A stretch of DNA of 64,000 nt from the IMG/VR virus record IMGVR_UViG_3300022924_000017, positions 22,054-86,053 of that record; one strand, given 5' to 3'. Source of the stretch: a virus (taxonomy: Duplodnaviria; Heunggongvirae; Uroviricota; Caudoviricetes). The notes beneath the pieces are model-generated. The model was not told the origin of the DNA, made no database searches, and saw nothing but the letters and a program-made list of their open reading frames with translations. The translations under genes and the position numbers were made by a program. This document shows, piece after piece, positions 1,359-46,810 of this stretch (its first letter is position 1; each line of letters opens with the position of its first letter).

Positions 1359-1676
1359 ATGGCTACCGCACCTAAAGCACCTGTATCAATCAGTGCCAAC
1401 GGTGGTTCAGTCAAAAACAAAAACCCCCAAAGCGATGATGATAGTAACAGTAACCGACGAACTTATGCGCTGGTCTGTTACTATTATCCGCAATATAAGC
1501 TCGAGGACGTTGAACAGATGCCTGCTCGAGATGTCAACTTGCTAATCAAGACAGCTCATCAGCAGAAAGCAGTCGAGTACATCAACCACGTACAGATTGC
1601 CGCAGCACCTCACTCTAAAAAGGGTGAATCAATCAAGAAACTAATCGACGAATACAAAAAACTGATCGAAATATGA
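1359..1676 (+). CDS. putative tail assembly chaperone second component (T-like)
   Basis: 105-aa ORF in the same frame as the previous ORF, separated by one TAA; its 3' end overlaps the TMP start by 4 nt. Confidence 0.4.
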   Translation: MATAPKAPVSISANGGSVKNKNPQSDDDSNSNRRTYALVCYYYPQYKLEDVEQMPARDVNLLIKTAHQQKAVEYINHVQIAAAPHSKKGESIKKLIDEYKKLIEI

Positions 1677-4600
1677 ACGACCGAGAAATCAAATATCTTC
1701 TAACTGGTGACGCGAGCAAGCTCAAGTCTGAATTGGCATCTGTACAAAAGCAAGCAGAGCAAACTGGTAAGAGTGTCGACCGCGCATTAACGAACGCTTT
1801 TAAGGGCTCTGCTGATGCACTCACTGCGACGTTCGCTAAGAACCTCGAAGCAATCAACAAAGGCCTTAACAACGTTCAAAAGGGCACTCAAAACGCCTTC
1901 AACGTGCAGAACGTCGCTGCCTACGCGAAACAACAATCGCAACTAGCAAACGAACTGCAAAAGATGGATCAGCAATACAAAACGCTGAACCGAACCGCTG
2001 ACACTTACCGACAAACTCTTATGCGAACTGGTGCAGATGCCGCTACTGCTGGCGCAATCACTGCAACCTGGGCTGACACTCAACGTGCCGCTCTTGAAAA
2101 AGCTGGTCGCTCAATGGGTACAGACCTCGGGCAACAATTCGGTGGGCTTGCAAGCGTTGCACCTACCCTTGCGGCTGGTATCAAGCAAATCGACGAAGCG
2201 TCAACAGAATCAGAGAAGTCTACTTCTCGTCTGAGCGCGGCACTCGATGGTACAAAGTCAGCACTAGACAAGATTCACAAGCAAGACTTCTCGCAACAAA
2301 GCAAGAGCGTTCTTGACTTCGGTAACAGCGTACGCAAGTCAACTGGCGACATTAGCCGTATGGGTCTTGGTATCGCAGCTGCAGTCGCGGCTTTCTCAAC
2401 AATCCCTATCCTGAAAACTGTTTCACTTATCGAGTCTGCGCAACTCGGTCTTGAAAGCCTGCTAAAGAGTACTGAAGCAGCTGGTGAAGCAATCTACAAC
2501 CTCTTCACATACGCAAACGCAACACCATACGACACCTCTAGTCTTATCGCATACGAACAAAAGCTCGTATCAGTAGGTCTTAGCGGTCAACAAGCGTTCG
2601 GTGTTATTCAACGTGTCTCAGACATTGGTGGTGCATTTGGTGCTTCATCTGACCAACTAGACCGTTTCTACTACGTGCTCTCTCAAATCTTCGGTGCTGG
2701 TAAAGCTACTGGTACTGACTTCTTGCAGATTCAAAACTCACTCCCTGGGTTCATCTCAGCAATCGGTGAAGCAATGGGCAAGAGCGCAGGTGAAGTTCGT
2801 GGCGCATTCGGTGATGGTTCAGTAACATCTGAAGTTATCGTCAAAGCATTGAACAACCTGACTAAAGCAGGTGGTACCGCCTTCGAAGGTGCGATTAAGC
2901 AGTCTTCTACATTCGCTGGTATTATGAACAACTTGCAAGACAACTTGAAGCGTGTCGGTATGGCGTTCTTCGGTGTTACCGTTACCCAAAAGGGTATGAT
3001 CGCGGCAACAGAAGGTCTATACGCTCGACTTAAAGTACTACTTACGAGCATTCTTTCATTCGTAGAAAACCCTATCACCGTTAAGGTGTTTGAAGCTATC
3101 GGTACCGCAGTTGGTAACCTGCTGACACTTCTAAACCAATACCCACAAGTTATCGCTATTATGAGCGGTTTGTTCTTGGCATTCGCTTCAGACCTTATCT
3201 CACGTATTCCGTTCATTGGTAACTTGATTGGTGAAATTGGTTACGGCACTGGTCTTATTGTCGGTCTCTTCGCAGCGTTGGTCGCTTCATCTAAAGAAGT
3301 ACAACAAGCACTTGCGGTTATGTTCGGTCTTGTCGTTCAGTTCGTTCAACAAAACAAGAGCCTATTCATCGACCTTCTCGCTAACTTCCAGACGTTGCTA
3401 CAGGTGCTCGGTCAAGGTATCGCACCTGCACTCATCATAGCTACACAGCTATTCTTGAACCTCGCACGAGCAATCCTATTCACAATCAACTTCCTTATCC
3501 AGATGGCGACTTCAATCGCTAACTTCTTGGGCCCTAACCTGACGCAAGCTATCACGCTCACAGCAATCTTCATCGGTGTCGGTCTTGCGCTTACCCCAGT
3601 CGTTCTAGCGGCAGCTAAAGCGGTACAGGTATTCGCTCTCGCGCTCGCTTCTACAGCGGGTAGAATCGTTATCGTTATCGCTGGTATCGTTGCACTTATC
3701 GCAGTAATCAGCGGTCTATTCGGTCAAAAGGTTTCAACCTCACCAATCGCGGGTCTCTCAGACATCTTCGACAGTATCGCGGTTTCAACTGAAGATACTA
3801 CTGGTGGTATTAACGACGTGACTGGTGCCCTCGGTGGTGCTGGTGACGCAGCCAAGAAAGCTACTAAGCAACTTGCCGCATTCGACAAGATGAACGTCAT
3901 CAACAGCCCTACAGCAGCCGACGCTGGTGCGGGTGGCGGTGGTGGTGGTCTTGGTGACCTTGGTATCACACCTCCTAAACTCCCTGACTTCAACAAGCTC
4001 AAAGACCAACTAAGCTCAATGCTCAAGGGTCTTGAAGGTCTTACCCCTAAAGCGAACTGGTGGGACTTCTTAATTATCCCTGCAGCGGTCATCGCTGGTA
4101 TTCTTCAACTTATCAAGATGTTTGCACCTGCAACATGGGACAAGATTATTGCTGGTCTAGCAACATTCGGTTCTAAGTTCATCGGGTTCTTCAAAACTCT
4201 CCCTGGTCTCGCAATGACAGCACTCAGAAGCCTCCCTGGTATGATTGCTCAGCTATTCGCGACTATGGGCCCTAGAATCGCTGCCGCATTCAACGGTATC
4301 TTGCCTGCTATCGGTAGAGCATTCGTGACTATCGGTCCAATCATTCTGCGAGCACTGCCTGGTATCTTGCGAGCTGTGCTGACAATCGGTGCGAACGTCG
4401 CTAAACTATTTGGGCCAATCGGTCTTGCAATCGGTCTTGCGCTAACAGCAATCATCGCGCTTATCTTCAACTGGGAAGCTGTGTCTAAGTGGTTCACTGG
4501 TGTCTTCACAGGTATCGTGAACTTCTTCACTACGCTCGGTCAACAAATCGGTGACGTATTTATGCTCGCGCTTAACGGTGCATTCGGTCCTATCCCGCAA

Positions 4601-5554
4601 ATCTTCGCTTCAATCGTAGTCTTGATTGTCGCGGTTGTAGCAACTATCTTCAACACACTAATGGCAGTCCCTGCTTGGGTTATGACGAACGTTATCACCC
4701 CACTCGGTCAGTTCTTTGGTAACTTGTGGATGGGCATCTCAGACGCATTCATTCTTGCTTGGTCACTCATCACTCAAGTAATCAGTATCTTCGCAAACTG
4801 GGTATTCGTAAACGTAATCACGCCAGTCGCTAACTTCTTTGTTGGTCTATGGCAGGGTATCGTTACGGGTGTTACCAACGGGTTCAACTCAGTGATGGCA
4901 TTCTTAGCACCGTTCTTCAACTGGATTAAGACAAAGATTATCGACCCTGTCGCAGGTGCATTCTCAGGTCTATGGAACGGTATCGTAAGCGTAGCGAGCG
5001 GCATCTTCAGCCGAATCGTCAGCGTGATGTCACCAATCTTCAACTGGATCTACAACAACGTTATTGCACCTATCTCTAACGCGTTCAACCAATTGAGTGC
5101 CGCTATCGGTCAAGTATTCACCAACCTAAAGAACACTATTACAAACGTATTCAGCGGTGTGCTTGGTGTGATTAAGGGCGTCTTCAACGGTATCATTGAC
5201 GCAATTAACGGTGTCATCAAATCAATCAACAAGATCAAGGTGCCTGACAACATTCCAGGTATCGGTGGTCTTTCACCAAACTTCCCATCTATCCCACGAC
5301 TTGCTCGCGGTGGTGTGGTTGACCAAGCGACACTCGCTATGTTCGGTGAAGACGGACGTGAAGCCGTAATGCCACTCGAGAACAACACTGGTTGGATCGA
5401 CGAACTTGCTTCTAAGCTAAACGGTCAGTCAAAGGGCAGCGATGGTCCTACAGTCATCAACGTTTACCTAGACGGTAACAAAGTTGGTGGTGCAATCAGC
5501 AATTCAATTAACGACCGTACAATGGTGACAGGAGTAAACCAAATTTATGTCTAA
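1673..5554 (+). CDS. tail tape measure protein
   Basis: 1293 aa. N-terminal coiled-coil, central hydrophobic/TM-rich region, tandem NWI..VI.P....F.GLW.GI repeats, C-terminal ...LARGGVVDQATLAMFGEDGREAVMPLE motif typical of TMPs. Confidence 0.9.
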   Translation: MNDREIKYLLTGDASKLKSELASVQKQAEQTGKSVDRALTNAFKGSADALTATFAKNLEAINKGLNNVQKGTQNAFNVQNVAAYAKQQSQLANELQKMDQQYKTLNRTADTYRQTLMRTGADAATAGAITATWADTQRAALEKAGRSMGTDLGQQFGGLASVAPTLAAGIKQIDEASTESEKSTSRLSAALDGTKSALDKIHKQDFSQQSKSVLDFGNSVRKSTGDISRMGLGIAAAVAAFSTIPILKTVSLIESAQLGLESLLKSTEAAGEAIYNLFTYANATPYDTSSLIAYEQKLVSVGLSGQQAFGVIQRVSDIGGAFGASSDQLDRFYYVLSQIFGAGKATGTDFLQIQNSLPGFISAIGEAMGKSAGEVRGAFGDGSVTSEVIVKALNNLTKAGGTAFEGAIKQSSTFAGIMNNLQDNLKRVGMAFFGVTVTQKGMIAATEGLYARLKVLLTSILSFVENPITVKVFEAIGTAVGNLLTLLNQYPQVIAIMSGLFLAFASDLISRIPFIGNLIGEIGYGTGLIVGLFAALVASSKEVQQALAVMFGLVVQFVQQNKSLFIDLLANFQTLLQVLGQGIAPALIIATQLFLNLARAILFTINFLIQMATSIANFLGPNLTQAITLTAIFIGVGLALTPVVLAAAKAVQVFALALASTAGRIVIVIAGIVALIAVISGLFGQKVSTSPIAGLSDIFDSIAVSTEDTTGGINDVTGALGGAGDAAKKATKQLAAFDKMNVINSPTAADAGAGGGGGGLGDLGITPPKLPDFNKLKDQLSSMLKGLEGLTPKANWWDFLIIPAAVIAGILQLIKMFAPATWDKIIAGLATFGSKFIGFFKTLPGLAMTALRSLPGMIAQLFATMGPRIAAAFNGILPAIGRAFVTIGPIILRALPGILRAVLTIGANVAKLFGPIGLAIGLALTAIIALIFNWEAVSKWFTGVFTGIVNFFTTLGQQIGDVFMLALNGAFGPIPQIFASIVVLIVAVVATIFNTLMAVPAWVMTNVITPLGQFFGNLWMGISDAFILAWSLITQVISIFANWVFVNVITPVANFFVGLWQGIVTGVTNGFNSVMAFLAPFFNWIKTKIIDPVAGAFSGLWNGIVSVASGIFSRIVSVMSPIFNWIYNNVIAPISNAFNQLSAAIGQVFTNLKNTITNVFSGVLGVIKGVFNGIIDAINGVIKSINKIKVPDNIPGIGGLSPNFPSIPRLARGGVVDQATLAMFGEDGREAVMPLENNTGWIDELASKLNGQSKGSDGPTVINVYLDGNKVGGAISNSINDRTMVTGVNQIYV

Positions 5555-6331: not shown

Positions 6332-7477
6332 ATGAGCGATAAATTCACTATCGTAGTCGCAGGACTACCACACACCCACCTGACCACAGAATACTCCAGC
6401 GACGCGTACCAATCTAAGGTGCGCAATTTTGCTATTATGATGGCTCGCATAGGCTATAAAGTCATTACTTTGGGTGGTGAAGAATGCGATATTATCGAAG
6501 ATGGGCACAAACACGTCCCGATTATCACGAAAAAAGAACAAGAAAAGTTCTTCGGTGACCCGCTCGCGTACAAAAAGACGATGTACAACCTGACGTGGGA
6601 GCCTTCTGATGCTCACTGGCAGCTTTACAACAAGCGAACCATCACTTTCTTGCAAGATTATATTCAAGAACACCCAGACGAAGACGTTCTGTTCGGTGTT
6701 TTAGCTGGTTACTGCCAGAAACAAGTGACTGACGCGCTACCTAATCTGATCGCCCCTGAACTATTTATCGGGTATACGGGTGTTTATTCACCATACAAGG
6801 TGTTTGAATCAATCACTCACCAACACTATGTGTACGGTGAACACCACGATGACGACGGAAAGTTCTACGATGCGGTGATTCCACCCTACCACCCTAAAGA
6901 ACAATTCCCATTCTCTACGAAGCGTGGTGACAAAAAAGGTAATTATCTTCTCTACATCGGTCGTTTGATTGACCGCAAGGGTTACAACATCGCTCAACAG
7001 GTCGCAGAAAAGCTCGAAAAGCGTCTTATTATCGCTGGTCAGCTTAACGAAGGGCAAGAGTTTACTGGTTATGGTGAGTACATCGGTACAATCGGTGTCA
7101 AAGAACGCGGACGCTTGATGAGTCGTGCTGACGCTGTGCTTATGCCTACAACTTACCTTGAGCCAGGCGGCAACGTCCACGTTGAATCTCTCTTATCTGG
7201 TACCCCTGTTATCACTACAAACTTCGGTATCTTTGCCCAAACTGTTCTGCAAGGTGTAGACGGTTACCGTTGCAATACATTCGGTGACTTCTTAGAAGCT
7301 GTACGTAGGGCTGAAAACTTTACAACCGCGCAACGTCGTGTTATTCGTAAACGCGCTCAAGAACGATTTGCTCTGGAGCCAGTCGCTTTACAGTTCGACG
7401 CTTACCTTTCTCGGCTTCACGATCTGAAGACAGATGGTTGGTACAACCCCTCTCACCACCTCGACCACCTAGCCTAG
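6332..7477 (+). CDS. glycosyltransferase, GT-B fold (family 1/4-like)
   Basis: 381 aa; YIGRLIDRKGYNIAQQVAEKL...LIIAG and E...G motifs resembling GT4 signatures. Confidence 0.55.
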   Translation: MSDKFTIVVAGLPHTHLTTEYSSDAYQSKVRNFAIMMARIGYKVITLGGEECDIIEDGHKHVPIITKKEQEKFFGDPLAYKKTMYNLTWEPSDAHWQLYNKRTITFLQDYIQEHPDEDVLFGVLAGYCQKQVTDALPNLIAPELFIGYTGVYSPYKVFESITHQHYVYGEHHDDDGKFYDAVIPPYHPKEQFPFSTKRGDKKGNYLLYIGRLIDRKGYNIAQQVAEKLEKRLIIAGQLNEGQEFTGYGEYIGTIGVKERGRLMSRADAVLMPTTYLEPGGNVHVESLLSGTPVITTNFGIFAQTVLQGVDGYRCNTFGDFLEAVRRAENFTTAQRRVIRKRAQERFALEPVALQFDAYLSRLHDLKTDGWYNPSHHLDHLA

Positions 7478-34537: not shown

Positions 34538-34954
34538 ATGAGTGAGATATACAGCGACAAAATAAAAACCCCGATTTATACGCCAACTGGCGATAAGCCA
34601 CATATCGACGAACTGGTCGACGACAAAAAGGTACGCGACCTCAACGAGCGTATTCGTTCATCAAATATACCGTCTGACATTCAAGTGTTCCTGCGCAAAG
34701 CTGCGACCCGACACTATGTTTATGACTATCGAAAAATCGCTGAGTATTACGCTCACGCACCTAAAGAAGTACAAGAACTATTCGAAGCGTCTCACCTCGT
34801 GATTATTGACTTTGACAAAGCAATCGAAGAGGGCTACGTTCAAATGAATAAACGCCTTATGAGCGTACGATCAAAACAAACAAATTACGACAAAGAAATA
34901 CATGGAAAACAAAAACTTCGTAGCACTGATATTGACGCACGGGCGACCGAATAA
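34538..34954 (+). CDS. hypothetical protein
   Basis: start moved to the internal ATG (MSEIYSDK); 138 aa. Confidence 0.4.
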   Translation: MSEIYSDKIKTPIYTPTGDKPHIDELVDDKKVRDLNERIRSSNIPSDIQVFLRKAATRHYVYDYRKIAEYYAHAPKEVQELFEASHLVIIDFDKAIEEGYVQMNKRLMSVRSKQTNYDKEIHGKQKLRSTDIDARATE

Positions 34955-35816
34955 CCAAGTTACCGTAAACACGCTGAAGCGTCACGGTTATACAGGTGAA
35001 TGGAAGCTCGTAGTAGACGATGAAGACGCAACATTACCCGAGTACCGCAGAGTATGGGGTGATGATAAGGTGGTCACGTTTAGCAAGAATGAAATCGCAG
35101 AGCGGTTCGATGAAGTCGACAACTCAGGTGAACGTCGCACTATATTTTATGCTCGCAACGCTTCGTTCGATATTGCTGAAAAGCTAGGGTATAAGTATTT
35201 TATCCAGCTTGACGATGACTACGACAGTTTCAGGTGGCGAATGAACGAGGATATAAATTATTCTTCGCTTATGCTATCCCCGCTACCCGAAGAACAGACG
35301 CTCGACAAGGTGTTTGACATTATGCTCGAGTACTTCATATCGGTTCCCCTGATGTACTCACTCTGCATGGCGCAGTCTGGTGATTACATCGGTGGTGGCG
35401 GTTCGAAGATGGTCACTGACCAGTTCAGACGCAAGGTGATGAACAGCTTTATTTGCTCGACAGATAGACGATTCAAGTTTGTCGGTCGTATCAACGAAGA
35501 CGTGAACACCTATACGTCACTTGCGCACCAAGGGTTCTTGTTCTTGACGACAGCATTCATTGCACTCAACCAGAAGACTACCCAAACAAACACTGGCGGT
35601 ATGTCTGAGATGTATAAATCGCTCGGTACATACACCAAGACCGCATACACAATTATCACTCACCCTTCTGGTGCAAAGTTCTCGGTTCTCTACAATACTT
35701 CAGCCATCAAGGGTGCAGGTAAAGAGAAAGACAACAACGCGTTTCGCATTCACCACCGTATTAACTGGCGCAATACCGCACCGCTTATCCTTCGAGAAGA
35801 GCATAAGAAAGTATAA
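34902..35816 (+). CDS. putative GT-A-type glycosyltransferase
   Basis: FVALILTHGRPN N-terminal strand and QLDDDYD (DxD-like) motif. Confidence 0.35.
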   Translation: MENKNFVALILTHGRPNNQVTVNTLKRHGYTGEWKLVVDDEDATLPEYRRVWGDDKVVTFSKNEIAERFDEVDNSGERRTIFYARNASFDIAEKLGYKYFIQLDDDYDSFRWRMNEDINYSSLMLSPLPEEQTLDKVFDIMLEYFISVPLMYSLCMAQSGDYIGGGGSKMVTDQFRRKVMNSFICSTDRRFKFVGRINEDVNTYTSLAHQGFLFLTTAFIALNQKTTQTNTGGMSEMYKSLGTYTKTAYTIITHPSGAKFSVLYNTSAIKGAGKEKDNNAFRIHHRINWRNTAPLILREEHKKV

Positions 35817-35830
35817 TAGGTAATAGAACT

Positions 35831-36406
35831 ATGAATAATCAACCCGACCAAAAACCCAAAGAGACCCCTGAAGAACGACGAGCCCGACTCATCGCTCAAC
35901 TTGAACGTGGTCGCGAAATTGCAAAAGAAAAGAAAGAACTTATGGAAGCTGCGGGCATGGACCCGTCAGACTATCAATTAACAAAAGACGGTGACGTTGT
36001 GCAACGTAAACCATCTGTGAAAAACCTCTCAAAAATCGTGCAAGAAGTACTTGCTGACCCTGAGTGGATTGACAAGGTGATTCGTAACCAGCCTGACTGG
36101 TGGCAAGGTCTACCCGTTAAAAATGCCGCATACATTATGACAACTAGTATGATTACTATGGCTATGTCTGGTAACCTCAAAGCCGCTGACTGGGTTCGAA
36201 AGACTGGTTTTGGTGAAAAGGTAACAGTCGAAGCTGAAGACGATTCATTCTTCGGTAAGCCAGACTTCACGATTCGTGTGGTCAACCCAACATACACTGT
36301 AGAGGAATTGCAGGGCGAAGAACCGAAATACATCGAATCAAACGCTTCTGAAATGATTGAAGAACACCTAGGCACCGAACTCGATGCAGAAGACGTTGAA
36401 TCTTAA
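35831..36406 (+). CDS. putative terminase small subunit
   Basis: 191-aa basic/acidic protein immediately upstream of, and translationally coupled to, TerL. Confidence 0.45.
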   Translation: MNNQPDQKPKETPEERRARLIAQLERGREIAKEKKELMEAAGMDPSDYQLTKDGDVVQRKPSVKNLSKIVQEVLADPEWIDKVIRNQPDWWQGLPVKNAAYIMTTSMITMAMSGNLKAADWVRKTGFGEKVTVEAEDDSFFGKPDFTIRVVNPTYTVEELQGEEPKYIESNASEMIEEHLGTELDAEDVES

Positions 36407-37812
36407 TGGCAGATGTCGTATTTTCAGACGCGCAGTTGCTCGCTTATAACGAGTTCTTAAACCCGCAAAGTACCCGTATTCTTTATGGTGGTGGTGCGGG
36501 TGGTGGTAAGTCATTCTTTATATGTCTTATTGTCGCGCTTATGTCAAGAAAGTACGCTGGTATACGCATTGGCCTAGCTCGAAAAGAGTTGATGAGCTTG
36601 CGACAAACAACACTCTCGACACTCCTCTCAAAAGTGCACCCCGCTCTCGGTATCACCCAAGACGACTATGTTATTAACGGTCGCGAAAACTTTCTCGAAT
36701 ATCGTAACGGTTCGCGGGTTCAGTTTCTTGATCTAACTGCGAAGCCATCAGACCCTGACTTTGAAAGTCTCGGTTCACTTGAATTGACTATTGCACTCGT
36801 TGACGAGGCAGGTGAAACAGATAAGCGCGCAGTTGACGTGCTTTCTTCGCGTGTAGGACGATGGATGAATCGCGAATTTGGTCTAGTCGGCACAACACTT
36901 CTTGCGTGTAACCCCTCAACTAACTGGCTTCGACAAGAGTTCTACGACCCTTACGAAGAACGCGGTATGGGACCAGTTCAAAAGTGGGAAAATGGTGAAG
37001 TATGGGTAGACGGAACAAAAGTGCCAGCTTACGACGTGTACATTCGTGCAACCGTAACATCAAACCCGTTCATCGACCCCAACTACATCGAAAACTTGAA
37101 GAAGCTACCACCACAAGAACGTAAGCGTTTGCTTGACGGTGACTGGAATTATCTCGATGACGACGACTCGCTATTCCCAATGAAACTGCTGGATAAGGCA
37201 ACGACGCTCCACCCAGACACGGACGAGCCAGAAGATGCGAAGTTCAACAAAGCAATCGGTGTCGACCTTTCAGACAGCGGCAAGGACGCAACTGTCGCAG
37301 TGCTCGTTGAAAACGGGGTTGCTACTAAGTCGGTTGAAATCAAATCACCAAAAGGTAGCGACCAAGCAATCGGTCACGCTATCGCAGAGAAACTTATCGA
37401 CTTTGCGCTCAAGAACGGGTTCACTCCCGCAGTTGCTAAGTACATCACCATTGAGGGTAACGGTGTGGGGGCTTCAGCACGCGATGCCTTGCGTTCTAAG
37501 GGCTGGAAGGTAAATGTATACATCGCAACTCAACAGACCCGCTCAGACGGCTTCTACAACCTTATGCTCGATCTAGACTCTGGACGTATGCGGTTACTCG
37601 ATGGGTCTAAAGACTTCAACGTATCAGAAGTTAAGAAAGAACTTATTGCTCACACCTACGACCTCGACACAGGTAAAACTCGGGTGGTCAAGAAAAGCGT
37701 ACTTCGCAAGAAAATCGGTCGGTCACCTGACTGGGCTGACGCGATGATGATTGCTAACATGGCTTACAACGCGTTTAAACCAAAGCCTGTTGGCGCATAC
37801 ATTAGGTGGTAA
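36406..37812 (+). CDS. terL: terminase large subunit
   Basis: Walker A GGGAGGGKS; nuclease-domain D..D residues; C-terminal DWADAMMIA. Confidence 0.85.
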   Translation: MADVVFSDAQLLAYNEFLNPQSTRILYGGGAGGGKSFFICLIVALMSRKYAGIRIGLARKELMSLRQTTLSTLLSKVHPALGITQDDYVINGRENFLEYRNGSRVQFLDLTAKPSDPDFESLGSLELTIALVDEAGETDKRAVDVLSSRVGRWMNREFGLVGTTLLACNPSTNWLRQEFYDPYEERGMGPVQKWENGEVWVDGTKVPAYDVYIRATVTSNPFIDPNYIENLKKLPPQERKRLLDGDWNYLDDDDSLFPMKLLDKATTLHPDTDEPEDAKFNKAIGVDLSDSGKDATVAVLVENGVATKSVEIKSPKGSDQAIGHAIAEKLIDFALKNGFTPAVAKYITIEGNGVGASARDALRSKGWKVNVYIATQQTRSDGFYNLMLDLDSGRMRLLDGSKDFNVSEVKKELIAHTYDLDTGKTRVVKKSVLRKKIGRSPDWADAMMIANMAYNAFKPKPVGAYIRW

Positions 37813-37813
37813 C

Positions 37814-38899
37814 GTGCTTACCCCATCAAATAACCTGTTAACCGTTGACGGTTGGAAAAACGTCACTGAATTAAATGTCGGTGATGAGATTTTAACGACC
37901 AACTTCGCGGGTCACGGTATATTCTCCCCGATACTCAACATTACAGAGTACGACTACGATGGATATATTTATGAACATGTGCATATCTTCAAGCGACAGG
38001 GTGGTATTATTAGTCACTTTTCACTTACCGAAGACAGCACGCTACCCATTAGAAAGACGCTGTTTCGCAAGAGCATTCTCACAGGTGAACGTATTGCAGT
38101 TGAACAAATCGACAATATCAAAATCAAAGACATTAAGAAGAATGTTCAAGCAATCGTCAAAAGCCCTCTTCAGTTCACAATGAAAGATAAGCGTCATCAG
38201 GCTGGAGTAATCAAAAATGGTTCACTGGATATGAGCGAGTCAGAGTATTTCAGACTTCTTGCTTATGCGGTTTTTAGGGGAGCGATTACACAAGACGAAG
38301 GTTCTCGTCACACCCTTACAATGTTCAGGGTTCGTGAAAAAGATGACCCGACACGTCTCATGGATTTGCTTGATCGCAACCGAATCGCGTATCGTACATC
38401 AAGTGGGGTGAAGAACGGTTATTTAGAACGCTTGATATTCTTGCGAAGCAGCGCAGGTGCGGCTCGTTCTTTAAAAAGGTTCATAGGTAAAAGGGTGTAC
38501 GAGCGAAAAATACCGAACGTGGTTATGCGCTCAACCTCACCTGACGCTGTTTATGCGTTCATCACGGAAGTTCTACGAATCAAGAAACCTGAGTGGGACT
38601 TTGACAACGGTATCCCTTCAAAAGGTCCACCCCTAGACTTTAGCGTGAGTAATGTAGAGCAAGCTGAACAGCTCGCAGACCTTTTCTTCAAGATTGGCTA
38701 CCCAACAACAATAACTACAACAAGCTATTCTACACAGTTGGTTGTGAACCGTCCAAAGTTCGCTAGAATAAAGGTAGAGGACATTATCAAAAAAAAATAC
38801 ACTGGAAAGGTGTACGCAGTCGATGTCATCAATGAAATGGCAGTCTGCAACCCCACAAACCTCGGCCCCCGTTTCTCAATGGTGGTCAAAGTAAATTAG
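37814..38899 (+). CDS. free-standing intein-like (Hint-domain) protein with central endonuclease-like insert
   Basis: GTG start 5 nt after AGGTGG RBS; N-terminus (M/V)LTPSNNLLTVDGWKNVTELNVGDEIL matches intein block A with Cys1 replaced by the initiator; C-terminus KVYAVDVINEMAVCN resembles block F/G. Confidence 0.55.
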   Translation: MLTPSNNLLTVDGWKNVTELNVGDEILTTNFAGHGIFSPILNITEYDYDGYIYEHVHIFKRQGGIISHFSLTEDSTLPIRKTLFRKSILTGERIAVEQIDNIKIKDIKKNVQAIVKSPLQFTMKDKRHQAGVIKNGSLDMSESEYFRLLAYAVFRGAITQDEGSRHTLTMFRVREKDDPTRLMDLLDRNRIAYRTSSGVKNGYLERLIFLRSSAGAARSLKRFIGKRVYERKIPNVVMRSTSPDAVYAFITEVLRIKKPEWDFDNGIPSKGPPLDFSVSNVEQAEQLADLFFKIGYPTTITTTSYSTQLVVNRPKFARIKVEDIIKKKYTGKVYAVDVINEMAVCNPTNLGPRFSMVVKVN

Positions 38900-38908
38900 G
38901 AGAACATT

Positions 38909-39499
38909 ATGATTACAGTACACAACCCGACCAATCTACCACTCGTCAAAATCAGTGAAGCAATACCCGTTCAGGGTGACTTGAAAGTGCTCACTCAAGA
39001 GAACTACGATAAGCTCAAACAATCAATCCTTAGTGACGGGTTCTACCTACCTATCTTCGTCTGGAAGCACGATGGTGACATCTACCTGCTCGACGGTCAC
39101 TCGCGACAAAAGGTCATGGAAAAAGAAGGTTGGGACGTTGAAGTACCTTACGTGGCTGTTGAAGCTGAAGACTACGATGAAGCTCGACGCAAAATTCTAT
39201 ACATTTCGTCACAATACGGTGTCATCACAGAAGATGGCTTCAATGACTTCGTAGTAGGCCTCGAACACTTGGATATTTCGAACATACACTTTGACGCACT
39301 TGATTATACACTTGCAACTGACGCATTCGTGGACGTTAACGAAGCTGAAGACGAAGCTCTCTCAAGTATGGTTGATGAGAAAGAGAAGACGTACTCACTC
39401 ACGATTAAGGCTGCTGACGAAGAGACAATCCTTGAAATTAACGACAGCATTCGAGACGTTCTCGACCAGTACAGCGGTATTAGCGTTCGGGTCAAGTAG
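38909..39499 (+). CDS. ParB-like nuclease domain protein
   Basis: YLLDGHSRQKVMEKEGWDVEVPYVAV ParB/Sulfiredoxin N-domain motif. Confidence 0.55.
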   Translation: MITVHNPTNLPLVKISEAIPVQGDLKVLTQENYDKLKQSILSDGFYLPIFVWKHDGDIYLLDGHSRQKVMEKEGWDVEVPYVAVEAEDYDEARRKILYISSQYGVITEDGFNDFVVGLEHLDISNIHFDALDYTLATDAFVDVNEAEDEALSSMVDEKEKTYSLTIKAADEETILEINDSIRDVLDQYSGISVRVK

Positions 39500-39825
39500 T
39501 GAAAGCTACCGTCTGCAAATACTGCAAAGCGGTTGATAAGCACTATTCGTTCCAATGCTCACAGCGACCTCGCAAAGAGGTAGAAGCGAAACCGCGCAAA
39601 GCAATCAAGCAACGCGGTAAGCACTATGATTTATGGCAAGAAGCTCGTGCTATCTTCGTGGCGAACAACCCAGATGCGAAGTGTTCGGTATGTGGTAACC
39701 CCGCAACCGATGTCGACCATATTATTAAACGTAGCGTTCGACCAGACCTGCGATATGTTCAAAGCAACCTTCAATGGTTATGCCGTAGATGTCACACCCT
39801 TAAGGATAATGGTATTCAGTTATAA
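39499..39825 (+). CDS. HNH endonuclease
   Basis: CKYCK...CSVCG...DVDHIIKRS...NLQWLCRRCHTLKDN. Confidence 0.75.
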   Translation: MKATVCKYCKAVDKHYSFQCSQRPRKEVEAKPRKAIKQRGKHYDLWQEARAIFVANNPDAKCSVCGNPATDVDHIIKRSVRPDLRYVQSNLQWLCRRCHTLKDNGIQL

Positions 39826-40323
39826 TCAGGGTAGATGACAGAGAAAGAATGGAAGTCGCCTCGCAAAATCGAAGAAGAGATAAAGCTCTATAGATTAAAG
39901 CGGTTCGAAGACTACATGCGAATGGTTGATCGTGGCGAGCTTAGTCGCTCACTTGCAATCGCAGCTCTGAGAGACGAAATTGAATATAGCACACAGCTAA
40001 CAGTGGAGACCGAACATGCTGATACCTAGAGAACCGAGCCCAGTAATCGAAATTCACACAGGTGACGAAGACTACGAACTCGACCGTGAGAATACGGTCA
40101 TTCGCCTTTACTCTGAAGAATACGAAACCATGAACCACGTGGTGCACACTCGCGAAGCCATGGGTCAAACAGCAATGAAGGCTATAATGCTGTTCAACCA
40201 GCCAGAACTTATTTCAATACTCGACGACCACGACTTCACTATGGTCTGGCAGAAATACCCTGCAGATGATGTGGTTGAGTACTATACTGAATACCAGATG
40301 AACTCACTCGACACCGACCTTAG

Positions 40324-41070
40324 TTAGTCTTTCATACTCCAGCGACCGTCTGACCATACCCACGACCACGCGCCAATACTTGCGCCAATAAGAACGATAA
40401 CCGCTACGATTGTCACGATGACATTATTCACTAGCTTGTAGCCCAGCGAGTCTTTTCTCAGCTGTTCAATAGACACAGTTTCAAGTTTCACCTGGCCACC
40501 AAAAGCAGATGCTAAGGTTCCTTCTGATGTGTTCGTCAAAAATGAAGCGGTGAACTTGAGCGGTACTACGTTATAATAGTATCTGTCGCTAAAGTCTTTA
40601 CGGTGATACCCGTCAACTCGAGTGACGAAGTTACCGATATTGAAGTTATTCGCATTGTACTCTCGCCCGAAGTAGGTGATTTTATCAGCATACTTTTCTT
40701 CACTACCAACCCTGTCCCAGCTGTAGTAGGTACGAGTACAAGTACGTGGGTGTTTGCTAGAACCGCAAGAATAGGTTTGTGTGTGTCTAGTGTAGCGTTC
40801 ATGCACCTCCTCTACGTAAGTAAACGACTCTTTTTGGTCGTCAAACTTCGTACCTTTTTTAGTTTCAAACTCACCGCGAGATAGAACGAGCCCTTGGTGC
40901 GAGTCTACGTCGTAGTTGAACTCGTCCTGTTTCTCTGCTGGTATTGCGATATTGTATTTGTAAGCGGTCTTCCAACCCTCAGTGTCAGCGTAGTCTTTGA
41001 TTAAGAAGCCTAGGCCAATGACAATTGCCGCAGCAATGAAGATGATGAGTATTCGCTTCAGGTCGTTCAT
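40324..41070 (-). CDS. membrane protein (possible partner of LemA)
   Basis: N- and C-terminal TM helices; 248 aa. Confidence 0.4.
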   Translation of the reverse strand: MNDLKRILIIFIAAAIVIGLGFLIKDYADTEGWKTAYKYNIAIPAEKQDEFNYDVDSHQGLVLSRGEFETKKGTKFDDQKESFTYVEEVHERYTRHTQTYSCGSSKHPRTCTRTYYSWDRVGSEEKYADKITYFGREYNANNFNIGNFVTRVDGYHRKDFSDRYYYNVVPLKFTASFLTNTSEGTLASAFGGQVKLETVSIEQLRKDSLGYKLVNNVIVTIVAVIVLIGASIGAWSWVWSDGRWSMKD

Positions 41071-44759: not shown

Positions 44760-45419
44760 ATGGACGCGGTATATCTTTACAAGCATACGAACAGCGATGA
44801 ACTATTCTATTCGATTCGCTTGCTTCAGAAGTTCTACCCCGACCTTGGCACTATCTACGTTATCGGTGATTTGCCACCAACACGGCTGCACGGTGAAGTA
44901 GTCCATATTCTACACCGTTCAATCGTGGGTAAGTTCGCTGACCAAATGCTCAAGTTCGCACTCGCGGTTCGCATTCCAGAACTGACCGACCAATTTATTC
45001 TTATGATGGACGATGTTTATCTCACCGCACCTTTTGAGCCATACCGAATGTACGACCGTAAGTACCCAATGCTAAACGAGAAAATAAAATCTCGCGCTGA
45101 TGACCCGTACCGCAAATCACTTATCAAGACGGACGTGTACCTGAAGCAAAATGACCTCGGTACCCGTAACTACGAACTCCACGTACCTGCTCTGATTGAA
45201 AAAGAGAAGGCGTTGTATATGACAAACAACCTCATCGACACGGATTTCGACCTGCAAATTAAAAGCCTGTACTTCAACTTCTACCCTTCGCTTGACGGGC
45301 TGGGTTCAGTGCCGTATGATGATGTTAAAAACATTAAAATCGAAGACGTTAATGCCTACTTATCGACAAGCAATGTTAAGTTCGAAAAATATAGGAAGTT
45401 TTTGGATCAATTACTATGA
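44760..45419 (+). CDS. putative glycosyl- or hexose-phosphate transferase (Stealth-like), uncertain
   Basis: ILMMDDVYL acidic motif; operonic with the GT2 and MTase genes. Confidence 0.3.
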   Translation: MDAVYLYKHTNSDELFYSIRLLQKFYPDLGTIYVIGDLPPTRLHGEVVHILHRSIVGKFADQMLKFALAVRIPELTDQFILMMDDVYLTAPFEPYRMYDRKYPMLNEKIKSRADDPYRKSLIKTDVYLKQNDLGTRNYELHVPALIEKEKALYMTNNLIDTDFDLQIKSLYFNFYPSLDGLGSVPYDDVKNIKIEDVNAYLSTSNVKFEKYRKFLDQLL

Positions 45420-46810
45420 ATGAACCTGTAGTCGGGGTTGCAATATCAACCTACAAAAGACCAGATGTTTTCAAGAAAACATACAAAGAAATTAAAAAGT
45501 ATCTGCCAAAAGGTGCCGTGCTTGTCGTTGTATCAGACCACGATGAAAATGCACCCAAAGAAGCTGATTACGTCTTCCCTGAACGTGGTGGTGTTGCAAG
45601 AGTCAAGAACAAATGCCTCGAACTGCTCGAAGAACGCGGTGCGACTGACTTTTTCCTGTTCGATGATGACACATACCCAAAGGTAAAAGACTGGTGGAAA
45701 CCTTACGTCGACAGCGAAGAGCCCCACCTTATGTACCAGTTTCGGGAGTTCGCAAATAACCCAGCAAAACAGCTTACCGATATGCTTGAAATATACCGCG
45801 ACAGCACAATCGTTGCTTACTCACACACTCGCGGTTGCATGATTTATGCTAACAAGTTAGTGCTTGAAAAAGTGGGCGGCTTAGACCCTCGATTCGGTAT
45901 CTCGATGTTCGAACACACCGCATGGACTAACCGCATCTTCAACGCTGGCCTTACTACGTTCAGAGCAATGGACGTGCCTGACAGTTCGAAGCTGATCTAC
46001 AGCATGGACGAATACCAAGAGGTTTCAAGCTCAATCGAACAACACGCACGTCGAACTGGTCTTGCGAACAACGCGAAATTGTATCGCGAATCACTAAAAT
46101 CCAGCGAGTACATTGATTACCGAGAGGTCAAGAAGTCTGATAGCGCAGGAATGAACAACGTAATTATCGCTTCTTACTTTACATCGCACGAAGACCCTCA
46201 ACGCAAGGTAAACTGGTCAGCAGATTACAGTGCTATGAAGCCGCTCATTGATTCATTGCAGGGCGAAAAGCTAGTGCTTCTGCACGATTGCTTCGATGAA
46301 CCCGACACCGAGCAGGTCACACACATAAAAGTCGAGAGCGTATTAAACCCGTACTTTCAGCGGTGGCTCAGTATTTATCGCTACCTGAAACAGCACCCCG
46401 AAATTGATAATGTTTTCTGCGTCGATTCAACTGATGTCGAGGTGGTTAACAACCCGTTCAGAGACATGGAACCTGGCAAGATTTACTCTGGTATCGAGCA
46501 GGGTGTGCCTTCACAAAGCAGATGGTTGAGACAGCACTCAACCGTTGAACCATATCGCACTTTCACCGCGCGAAACCGTCAGCACATACTCAATTGCGGT
46601 GTCGTTGGTGGCTCTCGTGAAGACATTATCGACATCTGCAGGGGTATTTACACCCGATACTTCGATAGCGGTAAGAAAATAACAGTCGAAATGCCGATTT
46701 ATGGCTTTCTGCTACGAACCTTCTACGCTGGTAGGGTTGTCACTGCGGGTGTTACAAATCAATTCAAGTCGTTCAAGTCAGATGGCACCGAACGATTCAA
46801 ACATAAATAG
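45416..46810 (+). CDS. two-domain glycosyltransferase (N-terminal GT2-like)
   Basis: VGVAISTYKRPD and FLFDDDT (DxD) motifs; second domain VIIASYFTSHED ... CVDSTDVE. Confidence 0.6.
   Translation: MNEPVVGVAISTYKRPDVFKKTYKEIKKYLPKGAVLVVVSDHDENAPKEADYVFPERGGVARVKNKCLELLEERGATDFFLFDDDTYPKVKDWWKPYVDSEEPHLMYQFREFANNPAKQLTDMLEIYRDSTIVAYSHTRGCMIYANKLVLEKVGGLDPRFGISMFEHTAWTNRIFNAGLTTFRAMDVPDSSKLIYSMDEYQEVSSSIEQHARRTGLANNAKLYRESLKSSEYIDYREVKKSDSAGMNNVIIASYFTSHEDPQRKVNWSADYSAMKPLIDSLQGEKLVLLHDCFDEPDTEQVTHIKVESVLNPYFQRWLSIYRYLKQHPEIDNVFCVDSTDVEVVNNPFRDMEPGKIYSGIEQGVPSQSRWLRQHSTVEPYRTFTARNRQHILNCGVVGGSREDIIDICRGIYTRYFDSGKKITVEMPIYGFLLRTFYAGRVVTAGVTNQFKSFKSDGTERFKHK

Follow-up and report, generated by a model that had tools for sequence, protein, structure and literature searches.

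What is the gene that begins one base after the large terminase gene (terL) of an uncultured tailed phage, and why has it been kept there? We addressed this question for a 64,000-nucleotide (nt) stretch of the IMG/VR record IMGVR_UViG_3300022924_000017 (positions 22,054 to 86,053 of that record; here referred to as the window), in which an open reading frame (ORF) at 37814..38899 on the + strand encodes a 361-amino-acid (aa) product. We refer to these as the intein-like gene and the intein-like protein. A preliminary reading of the letters of the window (the original prediction) had proposed that this gene is a domesticated or escaped intein, a split-intein remnant, or a Hint-domain homing element targeting terL. 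The results described below show that it is a whole intein, a Hint fold with a double LAGLIDADG domain inside it, that has turned into an independent gene. As for its history, we consider it on balance probable that an intein homing endonuclease became an independent gene after terL, lost catalysis, and was exapted as a working protein. The first of the three proposals is therefore the one we favor, given that purifying selection acts on the gene, that it is fixed in its clade, and that its catalytic residues are gone.

The intein-like gene runs from a GTG start codon at 37814 to a TAG stop codon at 38897-38899. It is preceded by the TerL stop codon (TAA, 37810-37812) and a single base (C, 37813), which together with the start codon form a compact junction at 37810..37816 (+). 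Its putative Shine-Dalgarno sequence, AGGTGG at 37804..37809 (+), is itself made up of TerL codons Arg467 and Trp468. The original prediction had described a separate ORF after TerL with its own AGGTGG ribosome-binding site and a GTG start, and this observation was confirmed, with exactly one base between stop and start; the N- and C-terminal sequences that it quoted are also correct. The arrangement AGRTGG-TAR-N-RTG with a 1-nt spacer is found at 24 of the 25 distinct loci compared, which stem from independent metagenomes. A mechanical list of ORFs opens the gene farther upstream, at a TTG at 37751. We placed the true start at GTG 37814 because all 11 homologues, along with the 25 distinct loci, begin at the equivalent MLTP/MAF position, mostly with ATG. 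The geometry of the junction suggests that the intein-like gene would be translated by termination-reinitiation coupled to TerL. A scan for promoters and terminators gave a result no better than that from shuffled sequence. The gene also contains a run of nine A residues (38789-38797, in the codons for Lys326-328) that is a potential site of slippage or sequencing error; the reading frame is intact across it, and relatives keep basic residues there.

The upstream gene, terL (36406..37812, +), encodes a large terminase subunit of 468 aa that is complete and carries no intein. It matches PHROG 2 across residues 10-455 (E value of 4.9e-31), with a weak match to Pfam Terminase_3, and its C terminus, ...AYIRW, shares its ...IRW end with TerL proteins of relatives that have no downstream intein-like gene. 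Both the PHROG match and this common end bear out the earlier view that TerL is complete. The intein-like gene is likewise not an in-frame intein, as had been stated, in that it has its own start and stop codons. Fusion to TerL in homologues, which would have pointed to a local frameshift, was looked for specifically, and no fused homologue was found.

Profile collections do not recognize the intein-like protein. PHROGs, NCBIfam, PADLOC, and Pfam returned nothing above threshold for it or for a second free-standing family described below, and a sequence search of the PDB with the intein-like protein gave no match. The Pfam Intein_splicing model did align to it, but below threshold (E value of 0.08; 13.2 bits against a cutoff of 35.8). 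The check for a Hint or intein profile was thus answered not by Pfam but by family-profile, hhalign, and fold matches. The 11 homologues (family 1) are 36 to 92% identical, range in length from 356 to 373 aa, and are without exception free-standing. When 1.84 billion representatives were searched with a family profile, 164 proteins were recovered, most of which are genuine inteins inside longer proteins. The ten hosts that we examined, each of them intein bearing, comprised TerL (four: P0013, P0022, P0116, and P0121), ThyX, GARS, phosphoesterase, transglutaminase, and prohead protease. When family 1 was compared by hhalign with 11 true inteins excised from their host proteins, the two aligned over nearly their full length (probability of 99.9%; E value of 7e-33). 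This alignment pairs Met1 with the intein Cys1, T72..S75 with TPNH, and Arg155 with the catalytic Glu of the first LAGLIDADG motif (...SEG in true inteins). The ends of the ORF coincide with the ends of an intein, with Met in place of Cys1 in family 1, and the motifs GWK, L-x-x-N, DY-G-x-Y, and GKVY are common to the intein-like family and canonical phage inteins.

Predicted structure agrees with this assignment. An AlphaFold2 model of the intein-like protein, generated from the 12-sequence family alignment, had a predicted local distance difference test score (pLDDT) of 80.7 and a predicted template modeling score of 0.77. Its best Foldseek matches were PI-SceI, TliVMA, PhoVMA, and PI-PkoII (E values of 1e-11 to 1e-9), and its central domain matched I-DmoI (E value of 3e-6) and WhiA. 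In a fold search of BFVD, the top 50 matches were all inteins embedded in larger viral proteins; none was free-standing. The model comprises a Hint N-lobe (aa 1-120; 37814..38173, +), a LAGLIDADG-like double domain that is the hypervariable part of the protein (aa 138-315; 38225..38758, +), and a Hint C-lobe (aa 316-361; 38759..38896, +) with a block F-like segment, KVYAVDVINEMAVCN, and the terminus ...MVVKVN. The double domain is predicted to form two alpha-beta-beta-alpha-beta-beta-alpha subdomains, the second somewhat irregular, packed via two LAGLIDADG helices. The first of these helices is YFRLLAYAVFRG (38237..38281, +), with the nearly invariant Arg155 at the position of the catalytic acid. 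The second is AFITEVLRIKK, which together with the loop WDFDNG spans 38540..38611 (+). Three features proposed earlier were thereby upheld: a block A whose Cys1 is replaced by the initiator (the Met1-Cys1 pairing in hhalign), a C terminus resembling blocks F/G (alignment and fold), and a degenerate homing endonuclease insert in the center (the fold match to I-DmoI and the loss of the acid positions).

The residues on which intein chemistry depends have been replaced. In 25 distinct loci, the gene opens with a GTG or ATG of its own, one base past the TerL stop, and is closed by its own stop codon, leaving no exteins. Position 1 is Met rather than a Cys, Ser, or Thr nucleophile; block B reads T72-E-D-S75 in place of TxxH, its His position being Ser or Thr in 12 of 12 family 1 members; and the protein ends in ...K-V-N-stop, where an intein would have His-Asn followed by a +1 Cys, Ser, or Thr. 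On its sequence, protein splicing is excluded, because there are no exteins, no Cys1, no block B His, and neither a penultimate His nor a +1 residue. The last residue, Asn361, is invariant in the family 1 alignment and, judged from strand order, probably corresponds to the terminal Asn of inteins; global hhalign did not settle this point. In the LAGLIDADG domain, the motif 1 acid is Arg or Lys in 12 of 12 family 1 sequences. The motif 2 helix lacks its terminal acid, and hhalign places the GDG of true inteins on the loop WDFDNG, at a site that is Asn265 in the window protein and acidic in about 7 of 12 homologues. Because the LAGLIDADG acids are not conserved, with Arg or Lys at the first position, double-strand DNA cleavage by the intein-like protein is unlikely.

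We next consider how the gene is distributed. Scans with TerL yielded graded relatives, and fixation was counted over distinct loci with a TerL at least ~53% identical to that of the window and enough downstream DNA. By this count, the intein-like gene lies at the same terL junction in 26 of 26 distinct clade loci, which include both free-standing families (TerL identity of 76 to 100% in family 1 loci and 53 to 62% in family 2 loci). The ORF is intact and encodes 331 to 373 aa in complete loci, across TerL identities down to 53% and intein-like protein identities down to 14%, and no frameshifted or truncated copy was seen among the 26 loci. It is absent where TerL is 39 to 47% identical. In these sister phages, terL is followed directly by the portal gene (L045, L046, and L086) or by small ORFs (L078-L087). 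An empty site is found in L077, whose terL has the same AGGTGGTAG end (ATTAGGTGGTAG) as that of the window and is followed by a stretch of AT-rich noncoding DNA and, on the other strand, by an HNH-like ORF (L077:4040-4560). Fixation in the clade and absence from the sister phages together mean that the intein-like gene entered this position, just behind the terL stop codon, a single time and was retained from then on.

The terL genes also harbor true inteins, and these behave differently. In some clade TerLs the P-loop is interrupted, between GGGAGGGK and T, by a full-size intein whose LAGLIDADG motifs are intact (L044 and L075), and others have a mini-intein at the same site (L041 and L043); these host loci also carry the free-standing intein-like gene. 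The W/C/T pattern of the P-loop inteins suggests that they belong to class 3. In sister-clade TerLs (43 to 45% identical), in-frame inteins interrupt the P-loop (L082-L084) or follow the position equivalent to residue ~361 (L087), and the free-standing gene is absent. The in-frame TerL inteins are thus sporadic and decaying, as the homing cycle predicts, whereas the free-standing gene is neither: the sporadic presence and absence expected of a homing element were not seen at any of the 26 loci.

The profile search also identified a second, unannotated group of free-standing intein-like proteins of 320 to 355 aa (family 2), which forms at least 72 clusters at 90% identity; together, the two families make up at least 83. 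Examples are L026:6001-7044, L027:6001-7011, and the proteins P0012, P0020, P0024, and P0159-P0226. The family 2 gene also lies directly after terL, and that terL is 57% identical to the one in the window and has the same ...YIRW end. Family 2 proteins start with M-A/S-F..., where position 1 is Ala, or rarely Ser, behind the initiator Met; they keep TPxH and end in P-x-W-x-x-P-K. Their first LAGLIDADG acid position is basic in 17 of 20 aligned members and His or Ser in the other three, and the second acid is likewise not conserved. A family 2 model (pLDDT of 90.9) matched TliVMA (E value of 9e-17), with WhiA also among the fold matches. By hhalign, family 2 aligned with true inteins at an E value of 3e-40, the ORF corresponding to intein positions -1 to +1, and with family 1 at 1e-30. 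Searches of GenBank phages by megablast and tblastn found no homologue of either family. No host can be assigned, because no prophage copy turned up when 185,579 species genomes were scanned in two rounds.

To judge whether selection maintains the gene, we turned to substitution rates. The pairwise ratio of nonsynonymous to synonymous substitution rates (dN/dS, or omega) of the intein-like gene was 0.07 to 0.105, and that of neighboring genes was 0.00 to 0.12. Across six subdomains, omega was 0.00 to 0.20 (0.05 to 0.20 for the LAGLIDADG double domain), with values of up to 0.28 in one pair for a 17-residue linker. Given these low values throughout, the intein-like gene is under purifying selection in all subdomains and is not a pseudogene. 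It is also the fastest-evolving gene in the operon; between the window and L001, identity is 76% for TerL and 73.5% for the ParB-like protein encoded downstream but 38% for the intein-like protein. Pairwise identities of the intein-like protein range from 14 to 96% and follow those of TerL overall (Spearman coefficient of 0.91), and inheritance is therefore broadly vertical. In close pairs, the central LAGLIDADG-like segment alone is divergent, at 63 to 82% identity versus 98 to 99% in the 3' flank and upstream terL, and dS reaches 1.6 in this segment versus 0.07 to 0.4 in the Hint lobes. The raised central dS points to exchange of diverged allele segments and not to positive selection. Nucleotide diversity peaks at 0.26 to 0.33 in the middle of the gene and is 0.02 to 0.17 across terL, with its lowest values in terL (0.02 to 0.07) in the last 150 nt of that gene. 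At the protein level, residues 1-57 of the Hint N-lobe are 84 to 98% identical among relatives whose whole proteins share 65 to 91%, and the Hint C-lobe (residues 316-361) is 83 to 100% identical in 6 of 8 relative pairs and 48% identical in the most divergent pair.

The closest analogue of the intein-like gene is the yeast HO/WHO family. WHO ("weird HO") genes sit just downstream of the essential gene FBA1, and in both HO and WHO proteins the intein-like region is joined to a zinc-finger domain at its C-terminal end (Coughlan et al. 2020, eLife, PMC7282813). At WHO loci, 3' fragments of FBA1 are duplicated and WHO genes occur in tandem along with pseudogenes, next to a hyperdiverse FBA1 3' end; WHO alleles share 24 to 55% protein identity (PMC7282813). 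HO, WHO, and the intein-like gene are all free-standing genes that derive from an intein homing endonuclease, without exteins and with splicing motifs lost. WHO lies directly behind FBA1 as the intein-like gene lies directly behind terL, and identity between alleles is low in both cases (24 to 55% for WHO and 14 to 96% here). The yeast proteins differ in being active nucleases as far as tested, whereas the intein-like protein has no conserved LAGLIDADG acids, and in their zinc-finger tail, whereas the intein-like ORF stops at the last Hint strand and has no extra domain. WHO clusters are, moreover, polymorphic in content and belong to a eukaryote, while the intein-like gene is fixed, single copy, and carried by a bacteriophage. 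When the terL 3' end and the intein-like protein were compared with each locus by tblastn and blastn, no duplicated terL 3' fragment and no tandem or pseudogene copy was found; neither is diversity raised at the 3' end of terL (0.02 to 0.07), as it is at the target gene of WHO.

Other known systems resemble the intein-like protein in part. Canonical inteins, including those of phage TerLs and the PI-SceI and TliVMA structures, share its fold, its domain order, and full-length profile homology. They are insertions in host proteins, however, whereas the intein-like gene has its own start and stop codons, Met for Cys1, Ser for the block B His, no penultimate His, no +1 nucleophile, and replacements of the LAGLIDADG catalytic Glu/Asp, and is fixed instead of sporadic. 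WhiA/DUF199 and intron maturases such as bI3 also retain, under selection, a LAGLIDADG scaffold without catalytic acids. They provide a precedent for reuse of the scaffold in nucleic acid binding, and WhiA is among the fold matches obtained here. Unlike the intein-like protein, WhiA has an added helix-turn-helix and no Hint domain, and the maturases are intron encoded and act on RNA; there is no intron here. BIL domains and stand-alone Hint modules share a Hint fold without standard splicing (2lwy was a weak fold match of the family 2 model), but BIL domains lack an endonuclease insert, form part of larger variable proteins, and retain autoprocessing residues. In split inteins, the Hint domain is divided over two extein-fused polypeptides. 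The intein-like ORF contains a complete Hint fold in one chain, has no partner, and follows a complete TerL, all of which argues against the proposed split-intein remnant. We found no report in the literature of a free-standing whole intein in a phage.

Taken together, these observations fit a history in which an intein homing endonuclease landed just after the terL stop codon in an ancestor of the clade. Homing into the terL region is a plausible route for this first arrival, possibly through a WHO-like or ectopic homing event. The splicing residues and the canonical nuclease residues would then have been lost while the protein was retained for a new use. It would be produced late in infection, in step with TerL, via reinitiation. 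Its most likely activity would be to bind DNA in a noncatalytic, sequence-specific manner, using the LAGLIDADG saddle and the DNA-recognition surface of the Hint domain, as in PI-SceI and WhiA, with the fast-diverging, allele-swapping central domain setting a lineage-specific DNA target. Such a protein might take part in genome packaging or in a process next to it, or else in the competition of its phage with co-infecting relatives.

Several observations weigh against this interpretation. That the protein binds DNA, is coupled to TerL, and does not cleave is deduced from sequence and a predicted structure, and the phages are uncultured and have no assigned host. The acidic residue found at the second LAGLIDADG region in about half of the homologues means that residual nicking activity may persist. 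Nonsynonymous divergence of the intein-like gene is three to five times that of TerL; in the comparison of L034 with L035, the C-terminal 250 aa of TerL are 96% identical and the intein-like proteins 43%, and in some pairs nucleotide identity collapses exactly at the terL junction. Such fast divergence and the collapse at the junction also fit a selfish or arms-race element. The downstream neighbor differs between families 1 and 2, so that only the linkage to TerL is conserved. Finally, the Hint lobes, and not the presumed DNA-contact domain, are the most conserved part of the protein, which may mean a protein-binding role.

This last point leads to a version of exaptation in which the protein binds TerL through its Hint lobes, as a regulator, chaperone, or packaging-motor assembly factor, and does not bind DNA. 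The strong conservation of both lobes (84 to 98% for residues 1-57 and 83 to 100% for residues 316-361 in most pairs) agrees with this idea, as does the genomic context: terL, with its fixed 1-nt coupling junction, is the only conserved link, and the genes beyond the intein-like gene differ between the two families. Retention of the full LAGLIDADG double domain at an omega of 0.05 to 0.20 would be hard to explain if the Hint lobes alone mattered, however, and ordinary inteins likewise show their strongest conservation in the splicing blocks, so the pattern may be partly inherited. We regard this possibility as unlikely, if worth keeping in mind. Somewhat more doubtful still is a selfish homing element that remains active, a phage counterpart of yeast WHO that would cut or nick terL, or the junction downstream of it, in relatives with another allele and spread by gene conversion, its divergence reflecting a race in target specificity. 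Descent from an intein homing endonuclease, a constant place directly behind an essential conserved gene (as WHO behind FBA1), the 43% versus 96% identities just cited, the abrupt drop in identity at the junction, a central segment that appears to have been exchanged and has raised dS, and an acidic residue kept at the second motif by about half of the homologues would all be expected of it. At the first acid position, however, almost every member of either family has Arg or Lys (three family 2 sequences have His or Ser), and the second acid is not conserved. Empty sites inside the clade number 0 of 26, the 3' end of terL is its least diverse part, omega is ~0.1 in all subdomains, and real inteins in the same terL genes are sporadic and decaying while the free-standing gene is not. 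With duplicated terL 3' fragments and tandem or pseudogene copies also missing, the hallmarks of WHO-type homing are absent, and we rejected it as the current mechanism. The original proposal of a Hint homing element targeting terL is not supported as a description of present activity: there is no presence/absence polymorphism, the acids are not conserved, and terL shows neither duplicated fragments nor raised 3' diversity.

The two other explanations are far less probable. The gene could be a functionless relic of an old invasion, kept because its deletion would disturb downstream expression or because too little time has passed. Its catalytic residues are gone and it evolves faster than any other gene in the operon, as a relic might, but an omega of 0.07 to 0.10 strongly disfavors this view, the ORF is intact and full length at 26 distinct loci, none of which showed a frameshift or truncation, and the true inteins of these terL genes are the ones seen to decay, into mini-inteins; we consider it very improbable. 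We give almost no credence to an artifact or recoding event, that is, an in-frame TerL intein, a frameshift fusion to TerL, or the N-terminal half of a split intein. The ORF does lie in the +1 frame relative to terL, the Shine-Dalgarno-like AGGTGG just before the stop codon superficially resembles a prfB frameshift site, and the next gene (ParB-like) is in the same frame in this window. Against this, independent metagenomes show the same stop, 1-nt spacer, and start at 24 of 25 distinct loci, and neither a C-extein nor a Cys1 accompanies the complete Hint fold of the single ORF. A prfB-like +1 frameshift was rejected because the P-site codon, UGG, should be unable to re-pair in the +1 frame and there is no C-extein to fuse; AGGTGG as a ribosome-binding site is the simpler reading. 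Read-through of the TAG into the in-frame ParB-like gene was rejected because the shared frame is not conserved (the gene is out of frame in L002), and an intein at the extreme C terminus of TerL was rejected because relatives that lack the gene have a TerL with an identical ...IRW end.

Inteins are usually regarded as purely selfish elements destined for decay and loss, to which yeast HO and WHO are the classic exception. An intein exapted by a phage would be a case of the HO/WHO type, here in phages and without catalysis. It is a possibility only slightly short of even that this gene represents the first domesticated intein in a virus or prokaryote: stand-alone, catalytically silent, coupled to TerL, fixed in a broad uncultured phage clade as two families, and serving as a lineage-specific DNA-recognition or TerL-partner factor in packaging or phage competition. 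If so, a phage lineage has kept a dead whole intein, intein exaptation occurs in viruses too, and phage packaging modules gain an unannotated protein family, for which every Pfam, PHROG, and NCBIfam model stays below threshold; searches of GenBank phages revealed no cultured phage that carries the gene. The sporadic, decaying inteins of terL beside a fixed free-standing gene offer a natural comparison within one neighborhood. The family would also constitute a naturally diversified set of LAGLIDADG-Hint scaffolds, predicted not to cleave, that could serve DNA targeting.

The surrounding genes place the locus in a conserved operon. All family 1 contexts have the order glucosyltransferase, 190-aa ORF, TerL, intein-like gene, ParB-like gene, and HNH gene. 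The ORF upstream of terL, 191 aa in the window (35831..36406, +) and ~190 aa in relatives, overlaps the terL start and is conserved; it had no PHROG or Pfam match and, by its position, is possibly the small terminase subunit. Downstream, a ParB_N-like gene of 196 aa (38909..39499, +), recognized by Pfam and PHROG, begins 9 nt past the intein-like gene stop. Its product has PHROG matches to ParB-like nucleases and methyltransferase N-terminal domains, and it is linked to the intein-like gene in family 1 only, being absent downstream of family 2 genes. Its stop codon is overlapped by the start of a gene for a 108-aa HNH endonuclease (39499..39825, +; Pfam HNH, E value of 1.8e-8), which is 66 to 97% identical in all family 1 relatives and probably of the terminase-associated type.

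The window comes from a siphovirus-like uncultured phage of ~84 kb, with a tape-measure gene at 1673-5554 and tail-fiber genes at 51 to 57 kb, and it has no near relative among GenBank phages. It encodes a homologue of TAGT-like glucosyl-hydroxymethylcytosine glucosyltransferases (34902-35816; phrog_842, E value of 1e-59) and two further glycosyltransferases (6332-7477 and 45416-46810), from which the phage DNA is probably hypermodified. The portal gene, which directly follows terL in the sister phages L045 and L086, is not beside terL in the region 36406-41000 of the window; the packaging operon is rearranged in this clade, with a terL-portal order that differs from that of the sister phages. 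Compared with L008, L010, and L011 over the region 36406-39825 and its upstream neighbors, dS was 0.13 to 0.17 for the 191-aa ORF and terL and 0.38 to 0.67 for the glucosyltransferase, intein-like, ParB, and HNH genes. These several-fold differences between adjacent genes of one operon indicate mosaic recombination among these phages.

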